In this document: piece after piece, positions 3,753 through 52,913 of the stretch
Layout of the letters: the number at the start of each line of letters is the position of its first letter
How positions within the stretch are numbered: position 1 is the stretch's first letter
Assembly: GCA_019326865.1 (NCBI GenBank)
Contig: GCA_019326865.1_4101.1
DNA: 64,000 nt
Strand: one strand, 5' to 3'
Source: a phage
Program-made: the position numbers and the translations under genes
Notes under the pieces: generated by a model
What the model was told of the DNA's origin: nothing
Databases searched by the model: none
The model's input: the letters and a program-made list of their open reading frames with translations, nothing else

Positions 3753-4595
3753 GTGTTTGATTTCAGTGATATTAAAAATAAGTCAGTCGATGATGATAAA
3801 CCAACACAGCAGTCTTTTTCTATTGCTGAATTTCTAAAACATATTGACCGTGCTGATTATAAGTTCTATAATGACATGACAGAAAAAGAACGAAAAGAGT
3901 TTACACCTTATACTGTTTTGCGATGGGTAAGCTCTTTGGATGATTCTCTTCAAGTTACATATCCAAGTAGTAAAGTTGAAAAAGTATTTGGTAAATGGAA
4001 AGCTGGTGGTAAGGAAACATTAACTGAACTAGTAACTGAATTGAAGTCTTCTGGGACTAATGTTTCATCAGTAACCAAGTACTGTCACGGTGACTATGAT
4101 TGGCGTATTAAATTTGCGGTTCAATCTAAAGATGCTGCACAAAAATTAATATCATCAATGACAGAATTTGGTGTAACTGGTTCTGAAATTGTGTCATTAG
4201 TAGATACTGAAGTTGTAAAATATCAACTTATTATGCTGAATGACATGGTTAATGATGGTTTTTGGGATATGAAAGAACATCCAGAATTAGTATATCAACT
4301 TATGTGCTCAGTGCATGATATGATTGGTGGACAAGAAATGCCCCGTAATTGGTTGAATTTTTCTAAAAATTTCAAAAAAGCAAACAATGAACTATTTGAA
4401 TTAATTAAAAGTTCACAACCTGATACTATTTCTACTCAAATGAATGAAGATGAATATAAAATTGTTTTATTACAGTATGATAAAAAATCATTTGAAACAT
4501 TTCTTGACAATAATGGTTTACAAGATAATGAAAAGAAATCTATGATGAAATTGTTTAAAGATGAATGTAAAAAATATGGAAAAGAAATCAAGTAA
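3753..4595 (+). CDS. hypothetical protein
   Basis: 280-aa ORF, apparent GTG start. Confidence 0.5.
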   Translation: MFDFSDIKNKSVDDDKPTQQSFSIAEFLKHIDRADYKFYNDMTEKERKEFTPYTVLRWVSSLDDSLQVTYPSSKVEKVFGKWKAGGKETLTELVTELKSSGTNVSSVTKYCHGDYDWRIKFAVQSKDAAQKLISSMTEFGVTGSEIVSLVDTEVVKYQLIMLNDMVNDGFWDMKEHPELVYQLMCSVHDMIGGQEMPRNWLNFSKNFKKANNELFELIKSSQPDTISTQMNEDEYKIVLLQYDKKSFETFLDNNGLQDNEKKSMMKLFKDECKKYGKEIK

Positions 4596-5286
4596 TAAAG
4601 TATACACCTGTAAATTTTGTGACCGTGAATTTAAACGAGAAGAAACTGTCAGCACACATAAATGTATAAAACGTGACCGATACGAAGACCGCCAAAGCCG
4701 CCAGATGATGGAGGCTTTTCGTATATATATGCAATTTATGGAATTGAATAAGTTCCCATTTAAAAAAGGCGTGGAGCCTTTTATTGCTTTTATAAAATCG
4801 AAGTACTTTAATGATTTTTATAGTTTCGCAGAATACTATTTGAATAATAGAGATATTATAAATGTGGACGAGTTTGTAAAGAACTTGATTATCACTAACA
4901 GACCAATTACTGAATGGAGTACGTATAAAGCAAAAGATGAATGGATATTAAAAACTATTCGTGCAGAACATCCAAAAGAAGCTATTGCACGAAGTGTAAT
5001 ATCATTGGTTGAATGGGCTGAAAAGTTGAATGTACAATGGAACACCTTCTTTGAAAATGTAAGTTCTGCTCGTGCAATTGCATGGATAGAGAGTGGTAAA
5101 ATTTCACCGTGGATTATATGGCTTGCTCCTAAAAAAAGTACTAATAAGTTTTTTAAAAAACTATCAAACTCAGAAATTGAATATATACTTAAATACATCG
5201 ATCCAAGTTATTTTGAAATAAAAACTATAAAATACAAAAAGGATTGTGATGAAATTAAGATTATGCTATGTGAGGCAGGATTATGA
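4561..5286 (+). CDS. hypothetical protein with C2HC zinc-finger-like motif
   Basis: CKFCDREFKREETVSTHKC near N-terminus; 241 aa. Confidence 0.5.
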   Translation: MNVKNMEKKSSNKVYTCKFCDREFKREETVSTHKCIKRDRYEDRQSRQMMEAFRIYMQFMELNKFPFKKGVEPFIAFIKSKYFNDFYSFAEYYLNNRDIINVDEFVKNLIITNRPITEWSTYKAKDEWILKTIRAEHPKEAIARSVISLVEWAEKLNVQWNTFFENVSSARAIAWIESGKISPWIIWLAPKKSTNKFFKKLSNSEIEYILKYIDPSYFEIKTIKYKKDCDEIKIMLCEAGL

Positions 5287-5612
5287 ATGGAAAAAGTATA
5301 TATAACAAAATACCAGAAGGGTATGTACCTGTACCTAAAGAACAAAAATCAAAACAAATATCTCTACTTCGACAAGGATCTATTACTGAAATAACACTAG
5401 ATGGCAAAACATTTCAAGTTCACGATCCGGCTCGTGTTGAAAAAATAATTTCTTTAGTTGAAAGACATGAAGAGCGATTTTTTAGTTTGAGTCAGGAGTT
5501 AGCAAAGACAAAACAAAATTGTAAAATATTAGAGAAACAAATATCAACGTTAGTTAATACAGTTAAACAGTTACAGGAGCAAATAAAAAATGCAGGATTT
5601 GACCGATTCTAA
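5283..5612 (+). CDS. hypothetical protein
   Basis: 109-aa ORF, coiled-coil-like C-terminus; start overlaps previous stop. Confidence 0.5.
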   Translation: MNGKSIYNKIPEGYVPVPKEQKSKQISLLRQGSITEITLDGKTFQVHDPARVEKIISLVERHEERFFSLSQELAKTKQNCKILEKQISTLVNTVKQLQEQIKNAGFDRF

Positions 5613-6228
5613 ACATTATAGAAAGGCCCGAACTGATATTGACATTGACTTCAAGGATAGTAAAAGTGTAATTGCAAAACTTCCTTGTGTACGAAGTACT
5701 GAAAAAATTACGGAGGATGGTTTAATCCCCCATAATAGTGGTGTTCATTTTGACAATATACCAACTGATCCAATTACTGGTTTGGCTAGTATACAATATA
5801 AAGAAGCTGAAAGGTTAGGATATCAAAAAGTTGATATTCTTTCACAGTCAGCTTACATGTATGTTCGTGATAGAGAACATTTAAAAGAACTAATGAATCA
5901 GGAACCAAATTGGGATTTATTGTTAGAACCCGAAATAGTAGAGCATCTCTCGCAAATTAAAAAACATGTAACATTGTTAAATGTATGGAAGCCTAAATCA
6001 ATAGACGAACTGGCAATGTTTATTGCCATGATTCGCCCAGGAAAAAGGCAGTGCCAAAGTATGAACACATGGGACGAGGTAAAAGCCACCATATGGGACT
6101 ACAGTACTATTGGCACGGACCAAGCAGGAAATAAATTACGATATTTCAAAAAGCCACATGCTTATGCATATAGCTTAATGATTGTTGTACAACTAAATGC
6201 TTTAGTTGAACATCTTACTTCTTCTTAA
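5590..6228 (+). CDS. DnaE (Pol III alpha)-like palm/fingers fragment
   Basis: By-eye motifs matching DnaE in order: DIDIDF (cf PDFDVDF), HNSGV (cf HAGGV), YQKVDIL (cf KFDFLGL), AMIRPG (cf LFRPGP), KKPHAYAYSL (cf NKSHSAAYAL); only 212 aa. Confidence 0.45.
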   Translation: MQDLTDSKHYRKARTDIDIDFKDSKSVIAKLPCVRSTEKITEDGLIPHNSGVHFDNIPTDPITGLASIQYKEAERLGYQKVDILSQSAYMYVRDREHLKELMNQEPNWDLLLEPEIVEHLSQIKKHVTLLNVWKPKSIDELAMFIAMIRPGKRQCQSMNTWDEVKATIWDYSTIGTDQAGNKLRYFKKPHAYAYSLMIVVQLNALVEHLTSS

Positions 6229-6568
6229 GTGCCACATTACGACGTTTGATGCGTTTCTGTGGCAAATTGCTTAAAGAAACTACTGGACCACATACGAAAT
6301 TCACCGATTGTGTATCGAATCTCTGTGTGTACGGTTCAAATTTCTCCATCTCTTCTTGAAAGAATAGACAAACTGGAATGGTTCTATTACTTTGCCACCA
6401 CCAATCATGTGCTATACTTAACAATTCGTCTTGCATTGATTCATTCATATCATCGAAACAATAAAGAGTTGTATACTGTTTGCTTTTGATTTTGATGATA
6501 CCAATAAACGTTTTACCATCATACTGGATTACAGTAATGAATGGTGGGATAGTGTTATATTGATTCAT
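6215..6568 (-). CDS. hypothetical protein (minus strand)
   Basis: 117-aa ORF filling the gap between + genes; basic C-terminus; 3' end overlaps convergent + gene by 14 nt. Confidence 0.4.
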   Translation of the reverse strand: MNQYNTIPPFITVIQYDGKTFIGIIKIKSKQYTTLYCFDDMNESMQDELLSIAHDWWWQSNRTIPVCLFFQEEMEKFEPYTQRFDTQSVNFVCGPVVSLSNLPQKRIKRRNVALKKK

Positions 6569-6625: not shown

Positions 6626-7603
6626 ATGGCTCATCACGGCGTGTTTATGTACCCTTATAACCAGGAAGTATCATTGGGCAATTTTAATATGCCATTTAGT
6701 AATGAAAAACTAACTATCTATCGAGGGGCAAATAATAATTTATCTTTTACTGTTCACAACGCTGATGGAAAATATACTTTATTGAAAGATAATGAATATC
6801 TTACATTTATGATTTTTGATGCACGAAATAATACTAAACTATTTGATGTTGTATTGGAAAAGCAAGAACCAAGTTGGTTATCAGAAAGTGGTCAAGCTCG
6901 TCAAACATTGGGAAATAAAAAGAAAGTATACTATGGATGTATTGTTCCAGCAGGAGTTATTCAAGATACCAGTCCTGGTTCCAAATATAGATGGAGCATT
7001 ACTAAAGTAACTATGGATGGTTCACTTATAGAACCAACACAATATCTATACACTGGAATGAACTTTGAGGCATCAGCGGAGCTAATAATTTCAGACCAAG
7101 CAGCCCCAGTATTTGTTCCTAGTACTGAAATATCTACAGACAAAAATCCAGCCTGGACATCAATAAAGCGTTTATATAATGAACCAATTGGTAATGGTAT
7201 GATAGGTGAGTATGATATACTAGCATCAACTCCACTTCCAGCACAAATGCAGTATGGGTTGGTTGATGGGCTAAGTAGCATTGCAATCTATTTTGATAAA
7301 TTCATTGGAAGAATACAGTTACAAGGATGTTTGTGTAATAATGTACCTAATGATAATGAAAATTATAAATGGTTTATAATCAAATTAGATGGAAAGGATT
7401 ATATTGAAAATGGGATTGATATTGATGGATTTCCAAAAGAGCTTGATGGTATTCAAGCATTTAATTTCAAAGGAAATTATATGTGGTTGCGAATCGTAGT
7501 AGCAATTCATCCTAAAAATGTTCCAGTACCATACGACTATGCTGCTGTGCGAAAAGTGTATAATCCTTTATTAACTGTACCTAAAATTTTGATTCGCAGG
7601 TGA
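6626..7603 (+). CDS. hypothetical protein
   Basis: Start moved to ATG at 6626 after GGAAGGA RBS; about 325 aa. Confidence 0.55.
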   Translation: MAHHGVFMYPYNQEVSLGNFNMPFSNEKLTIYRGANNNLSFTVHNADGKYTLLKDNEYLTFMIFDARNNTKLFDVVLEKQEPSWLSESGQARQTLGNKKKVYYGCIVPAGVIQDTSPGSKYRWSITKVTMDGSLIEPTQYLYTGMNFEASAELIISDQAAPVFVPSTEISTDKNPAWTSIKRLYNEPIGNGMIGEYDILASTPLPAQMQYGLVDGLSSIAIYFDKFIGRIQLQGCLCNNVPNDNENYKWFIIKLDGKDYIENGIDIDGFPKELDGIQAFNFKGNYMWLRIVVAIHPKNVPVPYDYAAVRKVYNPLLTVPKILIRR

Positions 7604-7658: not shown

Positions 7659-8714
7659 ATGAACGCTGTACAAAACATAATGGCACAAATAATGAATGAT
7701 CCAGTACCTTCAATTGGTACATGGTCACATCACAATTGTCCAGCTTGCGTGTTCAGAGGACATTCAAGGCCGGATACAAAGCACCGTGGTAATCATATGT
7801 TCAATGCAGATGGTTCCGTATCATATAACTGCTTTAACTGTAGTTTAAAAACGGGTTGGCAGCCTGGAAAATATATGAGCAAAGATATGGAGTCTTTGCT
7901 CATTTCTTTTGGTGCACAAGATAAAGAAATAGAATTAGTTAAGTTTTATATTAAAGAAATGGTTGATAGTGGAGATTACGCTACACAAGAAACGGTTGTA
8001 TCAAAATTATATGATAGAATAACTGTGCGTGATTTACCATCAAATGCTAAAACATTTTGGGAATGGGCTTCTTTACCAGAAGACAAAATTCCCCGAGAAT
8101 TTTTGAGTGTTTTGCATAACGTCAATGAACGAAATCCATACTTGTTAGATTTAGAATTATATTGGTCACCCAATAAAGAACATAAAATGTATGACAGGTT
8201 TATTATTCCTTATTTCATGAATGGAAAAATCATTGGATACACAGCAAGACACAAATTAAAAGATCCTGGAAGTACATACAGGTTTATAAATCAAGTAAGT
8301 ACTAATATACTATACAATTATGATTTATTAAAAGATGATAGAATAAAAACAATTTTAGTATGTGAGGGACCATTGGATGCTGCATTGATGGGTGGGGTAT
8401 CTGCAAATAACTTTAAACTATCAAATGTACAAATTGATGTATTAAAAGATGCACAACAAAAAGGTAAAAAAATAGTTATTGTTCCAGACCGAGACAAAGA
8501 TGGATTAATAACAATAGAACAAGCACTTGAAAATGGATTCAGTGTGTCGTTCCCAGACTTTGGTGCAGTAAGAGAAGGGAGCACTATACGTCACGTCAAA
8601 GATTTTGAAGAAGCTTGTTCACGATTTGGAAGATTGTTTTGCTTACAATTAATACACGATAGTATAGTAGATGAGCCATTTTATATCAAAGCTCAAACAG
8701 AAAAATGGATGTAA
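7659..8714 (+). CDS. DNA primase (zinc ribbon + TOPRIM)
   Basis: CPAC...CFNC zinc ribbon; TOPRIM motifs LVCEGPLDA and IVPDRDKDG; 351 aa, directly upstream of helicase. Confidence 0.75.
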   Translation: MNAVQNIMAQIMNDPVPSIGTWSHHNCPACVFRGHSRPDTKHRGNHMFNADGSVSYNCFNCSLKTGWQPGKYMSKDMESLLISFGAQDKEIELVKFYIKEMVDSGDYATQETVVSKLYDRITVRDLPSNAKTFWEWASLPEDKIPREFLSVLHNVNERNPYLLDLELYWSPNKEHKMYDRFIIPYFMNGKIIGYTARHKLKDPGSTYRFINQVSTNILYNYDLLKDDRIKTILVCEGPLDAALMGGVSANNFKLSNVQIDVLKDAQQKGKKIVIVPDRDKDGLITIEQALENGFSVSFPDFGAVREGSTIRHVKDFEEACSRFGRLFCLQLIHDSIVDEPFYIKAQTEKWM

Positions 8715-28696: not shown

Positions 28697-28740
28697 TACT
28701 ATTGAACAAAACATTAAAATCATATTGGAGCTTTTATTAC

Positions 28741-29803
<1,063 letters not shown>

Positions 29804-45709: not shown

Positions 45710-46858
45710 ATGTCCGAGAAAGAAATCAATCCTAAAAAAACAACTACCGCAGCTAAAACTACAAAACGTTCTACAAAACGTTCTACCAAAACCGCATCCA
45801 AAGGTCATACCATTGATGCAAGTGATATTTTTAACCAAACTACAAAATCACTCCCCGTACTGAAAGATGTTAAGGGAAATACTATGTCTCTAACAGTTCA
45901 AAACATCAACACTGTTGGTACAACTGCTGGTGCTGCTGTTGGGCGATTAGCTGATGAAATCATGTCTAAAGTTAATGTAACTGATGACAATACAGAGTTT
46001 GGAAAATCAATCACCACAATTCTCACATTGACTCGTGCAGTTGATATTGACAGTCTTCAAGAAGATAAATCAATTGTGGGGCGTATTAAGAAATTTTTTG
46101 TTAATGCTCAACAAAAAGTTGGTGATCAGTACAAAAATAGCAAAGAGCAAATTGACGAAATCATGAAAACTCTTCAAACTGGTATTAATCGCCAGCACGG
46201 AGAATGTGAATGGCTTGATAAAGCATATAATGAAAACAAAGAATATTTGTTTGAATTACGTGATACATTAGTTGGTTTGGAAGAAGTAACTAAATCACAA
46301 GATGCATTGTTAGAAGAAATGCAAAAAGACAAAAATGTAGACTCTTTTGCTATTCAAGAGCAGAAGATGATTTGTGAAGCACTTTCTAAACAGGAAGATA
46401 AGATTCGTCGTCTTATTATGATGTGCGAACTAAGTGGTCCACGTCTGATGAGTATGAAAAAAGTAAACTTGAACACTGTTTCTAAGTTTGAAGATTTAAA
46501 ATCTGTTGTTATTCCAGCATGGAAGTCTCAATTGGCTGAACAATTAATTTCCGAGCGTCAACGTAAGGATAATGAACTAGGCAATCTAATTGATAATGAG
46601 ACAAACCGTCTTTTGGAAACTAACTCTAAGATGGTTGCAGCAAATATGTTGGACGCAGCAAAGGCAAACAACCGTGGTATTGTGGATATTAAAACCTTGC
46701 GTAATGTACATAAAACGATGATTGACAGTATTGAAGCAGTTATTGAAGAAGAGAAAAAAGGCAAATTGGAACGTGAACGTGCTAAACAGGAAATTGCACA
46801 ACTTTCCTATGAACTGGAAGACACTCTTCGTGAAATTGCCGAAAAAGCTAACAAGTAA
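45710..46858 (+). CDS. hypothetical coiled-coil protein (possibly TelA/KlaA-like)
   Basis: 382 aa, basic low-complexity N-terminus then long predicted helices; TelA resemblance is size/composition only. Confidence 0.4.
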   Translation: MSEKEINPKKTTTAAKTTKRSTKRSTKTASKGHTIDASDIFNQTTKSLPVLKDVKGNTMSLTVQNINTVGTTAGAAVGRLADEIMSKVNVTDDNTEFGKSITTILTLTRAVDIDSLQEDKSIVGRIKKFFVNAQQKVGDQYKNSKEQIDEIMKTLQTGINRQHGECEWLDKAYNENKEYLFELRDTLVGLEEVTKSQDALLEEMQKDKNVDSFAIQEQKMICEALSKQEDKIRRLIMMCELSGPRLMSMKKVNLNTVSKFEDLKSVVIPAWKSQLAEQLISERQRKDNELGNLIDNETNRLLETNSKMVAANMLDAAKANNRGIVDIKTLRNVHKTMIDSIEAVIEEEKKGKLERERAKQEIAQLSYELEDTLREIAEKANK

Positions 46859-46861
46859 TAG

Positions 46862-46890
46862 TTGACATATGAGTGCGTTTTTAATATAAT
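46862..46890 (+). promoter_or_regulatory. sigma70-type promoter (TTGACA-17-TATAAT) inside terminator hairpin
   Basis: -35 at 46862-46867 and -10 at 46885-46890, lying within the stem-loop at 46871-46913. Confidence 0.55.
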
Positions 46891-46913
46891 CTTATTGAAA
46901 ACGCACTCTTTTT
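46871..46913 (+). terminator. rho-independent terminator
   Basis: gagtgcgtttt ... aaaacgcactc stem then TTTTT. Confidence 0.65.
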
Positions 46914-46937: not shown

Positions 46938-47627
46938 ATGAAACGTCGTCATATTAGTGTTGATATTGAAACTCTTGGAACACCTGAACTTTCCGGTTAT
47001 GATATTATTATCCCAAATTATGCAGCAGTTGTAGTTCCAAGTAAACCTGAAAATGACATTCATCAGTTCTTATATGTTAAATTACCATACCAAGATCAAG
47101 TTGCTGCTGGATTAAAATCAGACGCAGGTGCAATGGATTTTTGGATGAATACATGCCAGAAAGAATATCCAAATGCATATACTGAAGTTGCTAGTACTAT
47201 GAAAATCAAAGCACCTGAATTATATGGACCTAATGAACAATCACGACGTTTTTTTGCATACAGTAGTATTGTTGATTTTTGGAAAGAATTACGTTACAAT
47301 GAACATGGCGAAGAAGTTCCTCATTCTGTATGGGGTAATGGATGCAACTTCGATTGTAGTATTTTACAAGCAAACCATTTAAAATTAATGAACGCGGGTG
47401 AATTGTGGAAGTATGATGCACCTGAAAATGCACGCACATTGAAACGTTTATTGAATGAAGAAGCTCGTATTGAAATGGATGAAATCGTCTCGGTACAATT
47501 GGCTAAATTTGTTACATATGCAAACAAGTGTGGGATCAATGGGTTGGAGTTGCACCACCCACTGTTTGATGCGGCACGTGAAGCAATCCAGATTTCATTT
47601 TGTCTAAACAAGCTTAAAATGGATTAA
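46938..47627 (+). CDS. DEDD 3'-5' exonuclease (DexA-like)
   Basis: N-terminal ISVDIETLG Exo I motif; 229 aa. Confidence 0.55.
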   Translation: MKRRHISVDIETLGTPELSGYDIIIPNYAAVVVPSKPENDIHQFLYVKLPYQDQVAAGLKSDAGAMDFWMNTCQKEYPNAYTEVASTMKIKAPELYGPNEQSRRFFAYSSIVDFWKELRYNEHGEEVPHSVWGNGCNFDCSILQANHLKLMNAGELWKYDAPENARTLKRLLNEEARIEMDEIVSVQLAKFVTYANKCGINGLELHHPLFDAAREAIQISFCLNKLKMD

Positions 47628-49276: not shown

Positions 49277-49285
49277 TTAAATGTT

Positions 49286-49308
49286 GGGGGTACTTTGTAC
49301 CCCCTTTT
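49286..49308 (+). terminator. rho-independent terminator
   Basis: gggggtac-ttt-gtaccccc hairpin then TTTT. Confidence 0.75.
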
Positions 49309-49310
49309 CT

Positions 49311-49910
49311 ATGGGATGTACTATGTTTTTAAAAAATACTTATGAATTGATTAAAATGCTTCATCAAATGAAGAAAGGTAGTTTATTTCCCTATTACTCT
49401 GAGGATGAAACACATCGTTTAGTCCTTAAATTGGATGAAACTGGACGTATTATATCATTAAGAACACCAGTTCCGAGTGTGGAAACAGTAATTACACAAT
49501 CAACTCAAAATTCAGGAACTGCTATTAAAACGCCACAAGCATACAACTCTAATTACCAACAACCACAAATGTACACGATTAGCACTCCACCTATTAGACG
49601 AGTTGCTTGTATTGTGAATATAAAAGTATCTAAGGACTTTGATGATTTAATATCAGTTGAATGGTCAGAACTAACATCATCATTAACAAACAACGGGCTT
49701 GTAGTGACAAATGCAGGTATAATGCACAACAACAAAGAAGGACAGCAGATAATGAGTGCGTTATATCTTAGTAATGGTTATGTTATCATCAACGGTAAGT
49801 TGTATAGCGATACTGATCCTATTGCATTCACTGAAGATTTGGTTGGTGACAAAGAATACAGCATTCTTGAAATTATGAATTTAAAAAAGGTGTATGAAAA
49901 CCGTGATTAG
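49311..49910 (+). CDS. hypothetical protein
   Basis: Track start 49281 lies inside the terminator; first downstream ATGs are 49311 and 49323. Confidence 0.45.
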   Translation: MGCTMFLKNTYELIKMLHQMKKGSLFPYYSEDETHRLVLKLDETGRIISLRTPVPSVETVITQSTQNSGTAIKTPQAYNSNYQQPQMYTISTPPIRRVACIVNIKVSKDFDDLISVEWSELTSSLTNNGLVVTNAGIMHNNKEGQQIMSALYLSNGYVIINGKLYSDTDPIAFTEDLVGDKEYSILEIMNLKKVYENRD

Positions 49911-50478: not shown

Positions 50479-50832
50479 ATGCTAATTTATTTAAGTGTTA
50501 TTGTGATTTCATTACTGGTATCATTCGCTGTTCTTAAAATTGTTGCTATTTGTAGAAGTAAGATTGATAGTTTTGAAACTAGATCAGTACTTGACTTGAT
50601 TATGGACCATCCTAAAATCTGTGGTATTATTGTATTATTCGTTGTACTGATTAATACATATATTGTCAGGGAACATTTATATAATATGTATGATTGTAGT
50701 GTGCGTTCTATTTCACAAGGTGTTGAAACAGACTATAGTTGGTACTATGAGAAATGTCGATTTAAAAACCAGCATGGTATTTGGGTTGATTTTGATAAAC
50801 TACGTGGAACACCTTCAGGAGAAGAAGAATAA
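50479..50832 (+). CDS. membrane protein
   Basis: 117 aa with two hydrophobic segments. Confidence 0.5.
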   Translation: MLIYLSVIVISLLVSFAVLKIVAICRSKIDSFETRSVLDLIMDHPKICGIIVLFVVLINTYIVREHLYNMYDCSVRSISQGVETDYSWYYEKCRFKNQHGIWVDFDKLRGTPSGEEE

Positions 50833-50834
50833 TT

Positions 50835-51326
50835 ATGTTTGAATTCCCAGAAGAGTCATTTAACTTCATTGACCCTACTGATGATGGATACCGACATATT
50901 AACATTTATAGTAAAGCCAGAACGAAGTTGGGTAGAGATCTATCTAACTTTTCTTCGCATAGCTTCACACTTGAACCATATGGTTGGTTCCCTTCAGTTG
51001 AAACATTTTACTTTTGGTTTTTAACTGGGCAAAAACATGATGACCTTAGAAAAGTATCTGGTGCAGCAGCAAAAGCAGCCGCTAACAAATATATGCATGA
51101 TCGAATTGAAATGACGGATGATTGTATTTCTATTATTCAAGATGCTATTTGTGCTAAGATAATTCAAAATCCAGAGTTAGCCGAAAGATTAAGAAAAAGC
51201 AAGTTGCCTTTTTACCATTACTATGTATATGGTGGTAAAGTTGTAGATGTATCCAACGAACATGATTGGTTTGTTAAAACATTCGAATATATAAGAACTG
51301 TGTTAAAGGAAAACTATGATGGGTAA
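50835..51326 (+). CDS. NADAR/YbiA-like (DUF1768) protein
   Basis: HINIYSKARTKLGRDLSNFSS...FPSVETFY parallels YbiA INFYS...GDFSNFA...WPTSEHYFQ; RKVSGAAAKAAANK parallels RRVSSPMVAARMGR. Confidence 0.45.
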   Translation: MFEFPEESFNFIDPTDDGYRHINIYSKARTKLGRDLSNFSSHSFTLEPYGWFPSVETFYFWFLTGQKHDDLRKVSGAAAKAAANKYMHDRIEMTDDCISIIQDAICAKIIQNPELAERLRKSKLPFYHYYVYGGKVVDVSNEHDWFVKTFEYIRTVLKENYDG

Positions 51327-51597
51327 ATGTTGGGTATGCTTCAAGGTGTTTGATGAAGAATATGAAATAATATTAGATGTATTGCCACAGCAGTACATGG
51401 TATGTAATGAAAAATACAAATTGGACACCTACCCGACCCCCAAGTACATGGGAATATGTCCTTTGTGTGATGCAAATGGCGTGTCCAATAGTGAGATTTC
51501 ATTCACTAACCAAGCCACAACTAACTGTGTATCTGGGTATATAAGAGAGAATCGAGAATATTTTATTAGGAGATTATATGAACGACAAAATCTTTGA
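51316..51597 (+). CDS. hypothetical zinc-ribbon protein
   Basis: CWVC ... CPLC cysteine pairs; 93 aa. Confidence 0.45.
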   Translation: MMGKCWVCFKVFDEEYEIILDVLPQQYMVCNEKYKLDTYPTPKYMGICPLCDANGVSNSEISFTNQATTNCVSGYIRENREYFIRRLYERQNL

Positions 51598-51971: not shown

Positions 51972-52390
51972 AGTTCTTTAAAATTCGAATTGGTGTAAGT
52001 TCTGGTTTATCTCATTGGGTATTTTATGATTTACCTGATAGTTATACTATTGATGATGTAATTGATTTATATACCGAAGATCAACAATGGGTGTTAGATA
52101 CCGAAACATATAGAATTGATTGTCAAGAGATTAGTGAAGAAGATTACAAGCACGGAAAGCAAGCCATGAAGTATTTTGAAACAAATATCAAAATGCTGTC
52201 TGAAAACGTATTTCCGGTAAAAGAATGGGCAATTTTACTTGCTAATCCTAAAAAACCTGTTAGAATTGGTTATCCAAATTTTCATATGGTATATCGAATG
52301 AATGATAAACGAGAGCTTAATTATCAATACGATTATGACTCATCTAAGTTTGGGGTTCTTAAACAATTTTTGAAGGCTTATCCAGTATGA
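51968..52390 (+). CDS. hypothetical protein
   Basis: 140-aa ORF. Confidence 0.5.
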   Translation: MKFFKIRIGVSSGLSHWVFYDLPDSYTIDDVIDLYTEDQQWVLDTETYRIDCQEISEEDYKHGKQAMKYFETNIKMLSENVFPVKEWAILLANPKKPVRIGYPNFHMVYRMNDKRELNYQYDYDSSKFGVLKQFLKAYPV

Positions 52391-52722
52391 GTGAAGATAG
52401 TAAAGAGTATATTTTACGTTGTTCTTGTGGCGATAAAATGGAGCATTGTGTTCACATTGCACAATTTGACTTGACAGAAGAATATGGAGATGGTAAACTT
52501 GGTCAATGTCTTATTAGTATGCGTTTAAATCCTTTTTTAAAATGGTATAAACGCGTATGGGTGGCAGTAAAGTACATTTTTGGCGTAAACGACTATCAAT
52601 ATGTAGAAGCAACAATTGATGTTGACATTCTAAAAGATGTTGTTTTACAATTAGAAGATACTCGTTCAGATGAGGTTAAGAATGAAGAAAGAAAAAAACG
52701 TACTGATGTGAAGGTTTTATGA
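52387..52722 (+). CDS. hypothetical protein
   Basis: 111 aa, Cys/His cluster near N-terminus. Confidence 0.45.
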   Translation: MSEDSKEYILRCSCGDKMEHCVHIAQFDLTEEYGDGKLGQCLISMRLNPFLKWYKRVWVAVKYIFGVNDYQYVEATIDVDILKDVVLQLEDTRSDEVKNEERKKRTDVKVL

Positions 52723-52913
52723 ATACTGAACTTTATGAAAAAAAGTACTGTACAAATTGTTCAACTGAGTATACAATACAAGGTATGTTAATTTGTACAA
52801 TATGTCAGTCAAAGAAATCAGCCACGTTTATCGTTGATGATAGATTTGGTGACTTAAAACAGTTTAAAGCAAACCGCAATCTTCGTATTTTTAGCAATCT
52901 AAATAAGGAATAA
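52719..52913 (+). CDS. hypothetical zinc-ribbon protein
   Basis: CTNC ... CTIC cysteine pairs; 64 aa. Confidence 0.4.
   Translation: MNTELYEKKYCTNCSTEYTIQGMLICTICQSKKSATFIVDDRFGDLKQFKANRNLRIFSNLNKE

Follow-up and report, generated by a model that had tools for sequence, protein, structure and literature searches.

A predicted NADAR-superfamily protein from a jumbo phage and its large, mostly unannotated family

A NADAR-like gene in a jumbo phage genome

The window analyzed in this study is a stretch of 64,000 nucleotides of phage DNA (assembly GCA_019326865.1, contig GCA_019326865.1_4101.1), and the gene in question lies at positions 50835..51326 on the plus strand, where a complete ATG-started open reading frame (ORF) encodes a single-domain protein of 163 aa plus stop codon with a predicted NADAR fold. 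Recent work has established that NADAR enzymes erase ADP-ribosylation of bases and that phages use them to counter DarTG1. The upstream co-directional ORF stops at 50832, and the downstream co-directional ORF starts at 51316 with an 11-nt overlap. The gene stands alone within a block of small unannotated genes, and the surrounding region is one of replication and nucleotide metabolism, with genes for ribonucleotide reductase, topoisomerase, a DnaB-like helicase, RNase H, dihydrofolate reductase, a C5-methylase and Pol III alpha.

The window comes from an E. coli jumbo phage of the Asteriusvirus type, its DNA being 94-98% identical to the Asteriusvirus jumbo phages of E. coli and Salmonella UB, JP4, phAPEC6, SP27, 121Q and PBECO4. 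In 121Q the orthologous gene is gp73 (YP_009101667.1), labelled 'hypothetical protein' in its record, from which the ORF differs by 16 synonymous and 3 non-synonymous codons. Remoter orthologs are found in Klebsiella phage K64-1 (74% identity) and in Xanthomonas and Erwinia jumbo phages (46-48%). Because orthologs are kept and synonymous changes so outnumber non-synonymous ones, the ORF is a real, conserved gene under purifying selection, and the coordinates originally given for it are exact.

Searched as a single sequence, the protein has no match to any Pfam-A model, the NADAR model PF08719 included, even at E<=10, and it found none in NCBIfam, in PADLOC with the DarG models included, or in the PDB sequences by phmmer. 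It does match PHROG 652 (E=3.6e-45) and PHROG 11222 (E=1.3e-30), both of 'unknown function'. The gathering score of PF08719 is 35.1 bits, and the best relatives of the window protein reach 12.7-14.5 bits. T4 gp30.3 (AdfN) is likewise without a PF08719 match and matches PF08010 only, with 237 bits. The window protein has no match to PF08010 (36-bit cut-off), and two of its 84 multidomain relatives give sub-threshold scores of 20-27 bits. Since gp30.3 is a validated NADAR that fails PF08719 too, a PF08719 match is not necessary for membership in the superfamily. The original prediction, which had described a NADAR/YbiA-like domain protein, named a profile search against NADAR/DUF1768 as its check; that search gave no match, but it is not a valid measure for phage NADARs. 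The failed single-sequence searches reflect limits of those libraries and are not evidence of absence.

A family hidden Markov model (HMM) was built from an alignment of 27 relatives and searched against 177,635 distinct PDB sequences. At E<=10 it returned exactly two matches, the NADAR of P. nicotianae (8BAU, 1.1e-4) and E. coli YbiA (2B3W, 4.8e-4). A second alignment, of 175 domains and with the window protein as its master sequence, was made from the results of an exhaustive profile search, and alignments of YbiA and gp30.3 homologs were built as well. Compared by hhalign, the family matches YbiA with a probability of 96.3% (E=1.8e-9, query 19-159 to YbiA 14-158) and the gp30.3 family with 98.1% (E=9.1e-14, query 21-130), and the gp30.3 family matches YbiA with 97.5% (E=7.2e-12). 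On these profiles the three families are roughly equidistant, with the window family marginally closest to the AdfN clade.

The AlphaFold2 model made with the family alignment is confident, with a mean predicted local distance difference test (pLDDT) of 90.9 and a predicted template modelling score (pTM) of 0.84. The predicted fold is the YbiA-like alpha+beta fold typical of the superfamily, a helical core with two small flanking beta-sheets. In a Foldseek search of the PDB its only three NADAR structures stand on top, with probabilities of 1.00 (2B3W), 1.00 (8BAU) and 0.99 (8BAT), and the next match has 0.03. Among predicted viral structures (BFVD), uncharacterised relatives are the best matches, followed by many giant-virus and phage proteins annotated as 'NADAR domain', with probabilities of ~1.0. 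Three approaches independent of one another (the profile search of the PDB, the comparison of profiles and the fold search) bear out the NADAR likeness, and the window protein almost certainly belongs to the NADAR superfamily. The likeness had been placed in the N-terminal half of the protein; its extent proved to be larger, and the whole protein is one NADAR core domain.

Active site and relation to known NADARs

The family carries an N-terminal signature, D17-G18..H21-I-N23-I-Y25-S26-K27..T30..G33-R34..L36-S37-N38-F39 (50883..50951, plus strand), whose columns are invariant or nearly so in both the 27- and the 175-sequence alignments. Its parts 'INxYS' and 'LSNF' correspond to the NADAR motifs 'INFYS' and 'FSNF' of YbiA in the alignments to 2b3w and 8bau and to the YbiA and gp30.3 profiles, and D17, H21, T30 and R34 are specific to the window family. 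The codon of E56, within a motif S-V-E, lies at 51000..51002 (plus strand). This Glu is present in 175 of 175 domains and aligns with Glu in 8bau, YbiA and gp30.3; its counterpart, E43 in P. nicotianae and E88 in E. coli C7, is the universal NADAR Glu that contacts the distal ribose (PMC11543638). K80 opens the motif K80-A-A-A83-N84 (51072..51086, plus strand) and is found in 173 of 175 domains. Its counterpart K75 (P. nicotianae) or K115 (E. coli C7) is required for DarT1 rescue in vivo (PMC11543638).

H128-Y129-Y130 (51216..51224, plus strand) is located at the start of the C-terminal beta-hairpin, with His in 172, Tyr in 169 and Tyr in 169 of the 175 domains. H128 lies where a predicted strand (129-132) begins, aligns exactly with the signature His of gp30.3 (LKHSI) and adjoins the Glu of YbiA 'VEHTEND'; it is the counterpart of E125 in P. 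nicotianae and D171 in E. coli C7. The residue at this position defines the NADAR families, being Glu in the YbiA type, Asp in the DarG1 type and His in the gp30.3 type or 'phage NADARs' (PMC11125620, PMC12945103). Y130 aligns with the Trp (W133) of the canonical 'D..WG' motif.

Two positions of the canonical site are altered. L63 (codon 51021..51023, plus strand) takes the place of the Lys K50 (P. nicotianae) or K95 (E. coli C7), which binds phosphate and adenine, is 'largely conserved over the superfamily' and, as K95, is essential for guanine-ADP-ribose (ADPr) hydrolysis (PMC11543638). The gp30.3 consensus keeps a Lys here, and the column in the 175 domains is Ser in 43, Gly in 40, Leu in 39 and Lys in 14. 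A83-N84 stands in place of the 'G-R' motif, of which R79 binds the pyrophosphate of ADPr (PMC11543638). Position 83 is Gly in 164 of the 175 domains, and position 84 is Arg in 84, Lys in 43, Gln in 16 and Asn in 5, varying among Asn, Asp, Lys and Glu within the Asteriusvirus clade. The conservation of catalytic residues, another check named for the predicted NADAR domain, came out divided: E56, K80 and H128 are kept and the equivalents of K50/K95 and R79 are missing in the window protein. The family has invariant polar residues of its own (D17, H21, N23, Y25, S26, T30, R34, K108, Y129 and R154), and altogether some 20 polar positions vary little or not at all among the 175 diverse domains, E56 and H128 at the catalytic positions included. 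Such strong conservation of polar residues argues for a working enzyme in which the phosphates of ADP-ribose are contacted by a different arrangement.

T4 gp30.3 is the closest known NADAR by profile comparison. Both proteins are ~150-160 aa long and consist of the core NADAR domain only; both have LSNF, the conserved Glu, the 'G..AK..G' lysine and His at the family-defining position, and both are encoded among small genes by large myoviruses of E. coli. However, the window protein is not a member of PF08010 and lacks the Lys at Glu+7 that gp30.3 keeps, the window family has its own invariant motifs DG..HINIYSK..T.LGR and HYY, and the regions past the His cannot be aligned. The window family is carried by Asteriusvirus, by Vi1-like Salmonella phages and by Vibrio, Klebsiella and Erwinia phages, and not by T4-like phages as gp30.3 is.

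Compared with E. coli YbiA (2B3W) and the YbiA-type or general NADAR family (PF08719; 8BAU), identity is 16-17%, His replaces the catalytic Glu, and 'VEHTENDAYWGDGG' of YbiA, which holds the 'D..WG.G' motif, reads 'HYYVYGG' in the window protein, so that the Glu and motif typical of YbiA are both absent. Compared with the DarG1/BC4488 type (8BAT, E. coli C7), the window protein has His instead of Asp and lacks the K95 equivalent. In the model it also lacks the N-terminal beta1-beta2-alpha1 DNA-binding extension of that type, its first 20 residues being predicted as short and partly disordered. The DarG1 type adjoins DarT1, whereas window-family genes were never next to DarT in the contexts examined. 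NADAR-Bas32 of a T5-like phage and NADAR-Bas60 of Vequintavirinae resemble the window protein in standing alone in non-T4 coliphages and were acquired independently of gp30.3; their activity shows that counteraction of DarTG1 is general among divergent phage NADARs. By their published description, they were found by DELTA-BLAST with a conserved-domain NADAR model and cluster with canonical NADARs of archaea and bacteria, whereas the window family is invisible to PF08719. By the defining features of PF08010, PF08719, the DarG1 type and the YbiA type, the window protein belongs to none of the four, and its family is most aptly regarded as a fifth NADAR family centred on phages or as a deep sister of the gp30.3 family.

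Family distribution, partner domains and probable function

An exhaustive HMM search of 1.84 billion representatives shows that the family comprises at least 2,089 clusters (50% identity) with E<=1e-3, of which 1,651 also pass E<=1e-10. By tblastn, 504 phage records contain a member, and most of them belong to phages of Salmonella, Vibrio, Escherichia, Klebsiella, Erwinia and Serratia. The carriers include Asteriusvirus and K64-1-type jumbo phages and many Vi1-like (PhaxI/SFP10-type) phages of Salmonella, E. coli and Klebsiella. Among the 40 records listed, the gene is labelled 'hypothetical protein' in 35, is without annotation in four, and is called 'putative N-glycosidase' in one. The family is rare in cellular genomes, with 11 loci in a pattern-seeded scan of 185,579 species genomes, and the neighbours at these loci are phage-like (ribonucleotide reductase, thymidine kinase, dUTPase, HNH and DenV). 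Canonical YbiA-type NADARs, searched by tblastn with YbiA, are found in 641 phage records with Staphylococcus, Streptomyces and Bacillus as the dominant host genera; Escherichia does not rank among their ten commonest host genera. A canonical NADAR and a window-family gene are both present in Erwinia jumbo phage pEa_SNUABM_12. The window family (PHROG 652/11222) is a large, separate and almost entirely phage-borne branch, about as far from the YbiA type as gp30.3 is.

Some members of both types are probably misannotated. Canonical NADARs are named 'GTP cyclohydrolase (II)' in BcepSauron (NC_049851.1, 259315-259731) and in pEa_SNUABM_12 (MT939486.1, 96005-96460), and a fusion of a window-family domain with SLOG in Erwinia phage RAY (UniProt A0A173GE06) is named 'DprA-like protein'.

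The 84 multidomain relatives contain DUF4326 in 25 cases, YAcAr SLOG in 18, DprA-like SLOG in 10, Macro in 6 and DUF488-N3a in 6, and a canonical NADAR, a metallophosphoesterase and an Rv2179c-like exoribonuclease in one case each. With X for the window-family domain, the architectures include Macro-DUF4326-X (P0086), DUF4326-X-SLOG (P0164 and P0057), X-SLOG-DUF4326 (P0120) and X-Macro (P0054). The 1415-aa protein P0097 has the order NADAR-X-DUF4326, with the canonical NADAR at 10-143, the window-family domain at 541-703 and DUF4326 at 1185-1274, and ~900 of its residues are unassigned.

The same domains recur as separate genes. On a WOR-3 contig of a metagenome-assembled genome (JAGLZA010000033.1), an island on one strand (L016:4001-8240) comprises the family gene (4001-4444), DUF488-N3a (4460-4954), Macro (5551-6006), a canonical YbiA-type NADAR (7104-7583) and SLOG (7842-8240), and so holds two NADAR types in one cluster. 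In other contexts DUF488-N3a is found directly downstream of the family gene (L013), a Macro gene upstream (L020), and a DUF4326 gene (L011) or a 2H/LigT phosphoesterase (L009) nearby; AAA_28 domains and Thg1 are also among the neighbours. On a 117-kb phage-like contig, a 392-aa ADP-ribosyltransferase (ART; PF03496 ADPrib_exo_Tox, L005:6500-7678, minus strand) is convergent with and adjacent to the family gene (6001-6435), the one such adjacency in ~19 contexts. This arrangement echoes that of T4, in which alt lies ~3 kb from 30.3.

These architectures match the 'NADAR' fusions with SLOG, Macro and DUF4326 that Iyer, Burroughs and Aravind described from jumbo phages and giant viruses in 2021/2022 and read as machinery for processing ADPr derivatives, and at least part of the window family has therefore probably been counted as NADAR by these authors already. 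No member is named explicitly in the text of their papers. Our search of the literature and databases turned up neither an explicit account of the family nor a Pfam model or functional PHROG label for it.

The window protein is probably an N-glycosidase of ADPr conjugates. It would hydrolyse the N-glycosidic bond between ADP-ribose and a base, with E56 and H128 on either side of the distal ribose, the placement of E43 and E125 in the known structure of a NADAR with bound ADPr. Because the phosphate-binding Lys, and in the window phage also the Arg, is missing, ADP-ribose would be held differently, probably through the family-specific basic residues K27, R34, K80, K108 and K135, and the substrate preference may in consequence differ from that of characterised NADARs.

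In the reading we favour, the enzyme would erase, during infection, the ADP-ribosylation set on phage nucleic acid by ARTs of host defence systems. The model case would be guanine-N2-ADPr made by the DarT1 of DarTG1, which is countered by T4 AdfN, NADAR-Bas32 and NADAR-Bas60 (PMC11257639); AdfN is an ADP-ribosylglycohydrolase that takes ADP-ribose off phage DNA and thereby defeats DarTG1 (PMC11257639, PMC11125620). In the in-vivo tests of Johannesman et al., DarTG1 was countered by each of the phage NADARs, and E. coli strains carry this system. [quoted passage not shown] The genomic context also speaks for this reading: the domain is recurrently linked to DUF4326, SLOG, Macro and DUF488-N3a, as in the fusions and the L016 island, an ART adjoins the family gene in L005, orphan DarG-like genes are among the neighbours, and the window gene lies in a replication and nucleotide-metabolism region downstream of sigma70-consensus promoters. 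With such direct precedent in AdfN, NADAR-Bas32 and NADAR-Bas60, the suggestion of the original prediction that the phage copy counters a host ADP-ribosylating defence is, we infer by analogy, plausible. A DarT1-type counter-defence enzyme acting on nucleic acid is the more specific form of this proposal, and we hold it as a serious but tentative one.

Several points weigh against this counter-defence role. The equivalent of K50/K95 is absent (L63) in a column that is not conserved in the family, and the window protein has N84 where most relatives carry a pyrophosphate-binding Arg or Lys. One in-vivo assay found no activity of T4 gp30.3 against DarT1, and competence in vitro is accordingly no guarantee of a counter-defence role. 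No enzymatic or genetic test of any family member was found in the literature. No DarT was detected by PADLOC among 76 neighbours at the 11 genome loci, nor does one appear in the Pfam annotation recorded for 8 metagenomic contexts. The co-occurrence of a canonical NADAR with the window-family domain in P0097 and pEa_SNUABM_12 argues for different specificities of the two. Moreover, the partners SLOG, DUF4326, DUF488-N3a and Macro would fit the processing of soluble ADPr derivatives at least equally well.

This last point leads to the strongest alternative, in which fold and chemistry are the same and the substrate is a soluble NAD+- or ADPr-derived molecule rather than modified DNA. Candidates would be a cyclic or linear ADPr-based immune signal, or a toxin, from host TIR, SIR2, ART or SLOG-type systems, and the protein would share a pathway with the SLOG, Macro, DUF4326 and phosphatase-like DUF488-N3a domains, in which these molecules are degraded and abortive-infection signalling is blunted. 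The dominance of YAcAr and DprA-like SLOG, DUF4326 and DUF488-N3a among the fusion partners speaks for it, as do the L016 island and the L013 adjacency, in which the same set is repeated as neighbours, and the 2H/LigT (L009), DUF4326 (L011) and AAA_28 domains in other contexts. Iyer et al. predicted exactly such a role for NADAR-SLOG-Macro-DUF4326 combinations, and the canonical Lys and Arg that bind pyrophosphate are lost, which hints at a different ligand. However, all biochemical tests of NADARs so far found base-ADPr hydrolysis on nucleic acids or, for YbiA, action on riboflavin intermediates, and action on a soluble immune signal is not known for any NADAR. K80, the counterpart of a Lys thought to aid recognition of DNA or DarT1, is invariant. 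The window protein also stands alone, and no SLOG, Macro, DUF4326 or DUF488 gene was found in the 64-kb window by BLAST-level searches. We regard a soluble substrate as rather unlikely for the window protein.

A bolder form of the proposal, and in our view a doubtful one, is that the family is a fifth NADAR family, with Glu and His and without the Lys, that has its own substrate. This could be a small molecule derived from ADPr or a differently linked nucleic-acid adduct, not guanine-ADPr DNA, and the enzyme would perform one step of a modular SLOG/Macro/DUF4326/DUF488-N3a/NADAR pathway against NAD-derived immune signals or toxins of the host. If so, the co-occurrence with canonical NADARs in P0097, L016 and pEa_SNUABM_12 would represent a division of labour between two N-glycosidases.

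A role in the phage's own programme instead of counter-defence, in which the enzyme would trim or reverse modifications set by Alt- or Mod-like ARTs of the phage or clear ADPr by-products of NAD-dependent RNA repair (KptA/2H), is improbable. It draws on the ART directly beside the family gene in L005 and the proximity of alt to 30.3 in T4, on the early co-expression of NADAR and ART in T4-like phages and the RNA-repair links noted by Iyer et al., on the 2H/LigT gene of L009 and on Thg1, and on the Rv2179c-like exoribonuclease, which is encoded near the family gene both in the window and in L008 and is fused to the domain in one relative. The ART adjacency, however, is a single case, and no DarT or ART was seen in the window by Pfam searches of 10 neighbours, in the listed part (25 of 53) of the Pfam families of 68 other ORFs, or by BLAST with partner domains. 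NADARs are, moreover, inactive on RNA and DNA ADP-ribosylated at phosphate ends, and the demonstrated role of AdfN is that against DarTG1.

Least probable is a NADAR fold without hydrolase activity (a degenerate binding module or unrelated chemistry) or a YbiA-like N-glycosidase of riboflavin intermediates: the missing K50/K95 and R79 equivalents, the lack of a Pfam NADAR match and the one relative labelled 'putative N-glycosidase' can be cited for it, but the ~20 near-invariant polar positions are typical of an active enzyme, purifying selection is evident, the YbiA-type Glu and 'D..WG' are absent, and the partner domains are all related to ADPr and none to riboflavin. YbiA itself acts on riboflavin intermediates; no riboflavin-pathway gene is among the 25 listed families of the window, and a riboflavin-housekeeping role was rejected on grounds of motif and context. 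An antitoxin of a type II or IV toxin-antitoxin system was also considered for the family and rejected because no DarT partner is found in the window or beside the 11 genome loci. At these loci, two neighbours match DarG macrodomain models in PADLOC without a DarT, and represent orphan DarG-like, antitoxin-like genes.

A fold and a probable chemistry can now be assigned to a large phage family that lacks a function label. Since Pfam-based screens miss whole branches of phage NADARs, the anti-DarT capacity of phages is under-counted in surveys. The occurrence of a NADAR in a jumbo phage will not surprise specialists; the concrete lead is that a family so large and unannotated has an altered set of catalytic residues. 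The active site with its His and without the canonical Lys and Arg, together with the linkage to Macro, SLOG, DUF4326 and DUF488-N3a, offers a cheap and well-defined target for assays, and the family could reveal whether phage NADARs act on DNA adducts only or on soluble ADPr signals too.

Other features of the window

Strong matches to sigma70-type promoters, as consensus matches only, are found in intergenic gaps upstream of the NADAR-like gene. One of them, in the gap before the exoribonuclease gene, is a perfect consensus (TTGACA-17-TATAAT, 12/12; 46862-46890, plus strand), which is overlapped by a terminator-like hairpin with a 16-bp stem (46871-46908, plus strand). Early expression of the NADAR-like gene may be expected from these upstream matches. 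A GC-rich terminator-like hairpin, GGGGGTAC...GTACCCCC followed by a T-run (49286-49304, plus strand), lies just inside the mechanically called ORF 49281-49910. It is probably intergenic, because the counterpart gene in 121Q starts ~40 nt later, and the transcription unit with the NADAR-like gene may begin there.

The exoribonuclease gene encodes an Rv2179c-like 3'-5' enzyme (46938-47627, plus strand). A similar gene is present in L008 (1201-1770), so that this enzyme is found 3-4 kb upstream of the family gene on unrelated contigs. A phmmer search with the window exonuclease for the Rv2179c-fused relative gave no match, the two being too divergent. The recurrence, including the fusion to one family member, points to a possible association with RNA processing. 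A gene for a TelA-like (toxic anion resistance) protein also lies upstream of the family gene both in the window (45710-46858, plus strand) and in a distant relative (L007:2704-3822).

Downstream of the NADAR-like gene, three small ORFs on the plus strand (51316-51597, 52387-52722 and 52719-52913) contain paired CxxC motifs, such as CWVC...CPLC, CSCG...C and CTNC...CTIC, which suggests that they encode zinc-ribbon proteins; ORF 51316-51597 has no Pfam match. Farther away, a homolog of translation initiation factor IF-3 is encoded at 28702-29241 (plus strand), with the Pfam domains IF3_N and IF3_C and 41% identity to residues 16-133 of E. coli InfC (E=8e-19).

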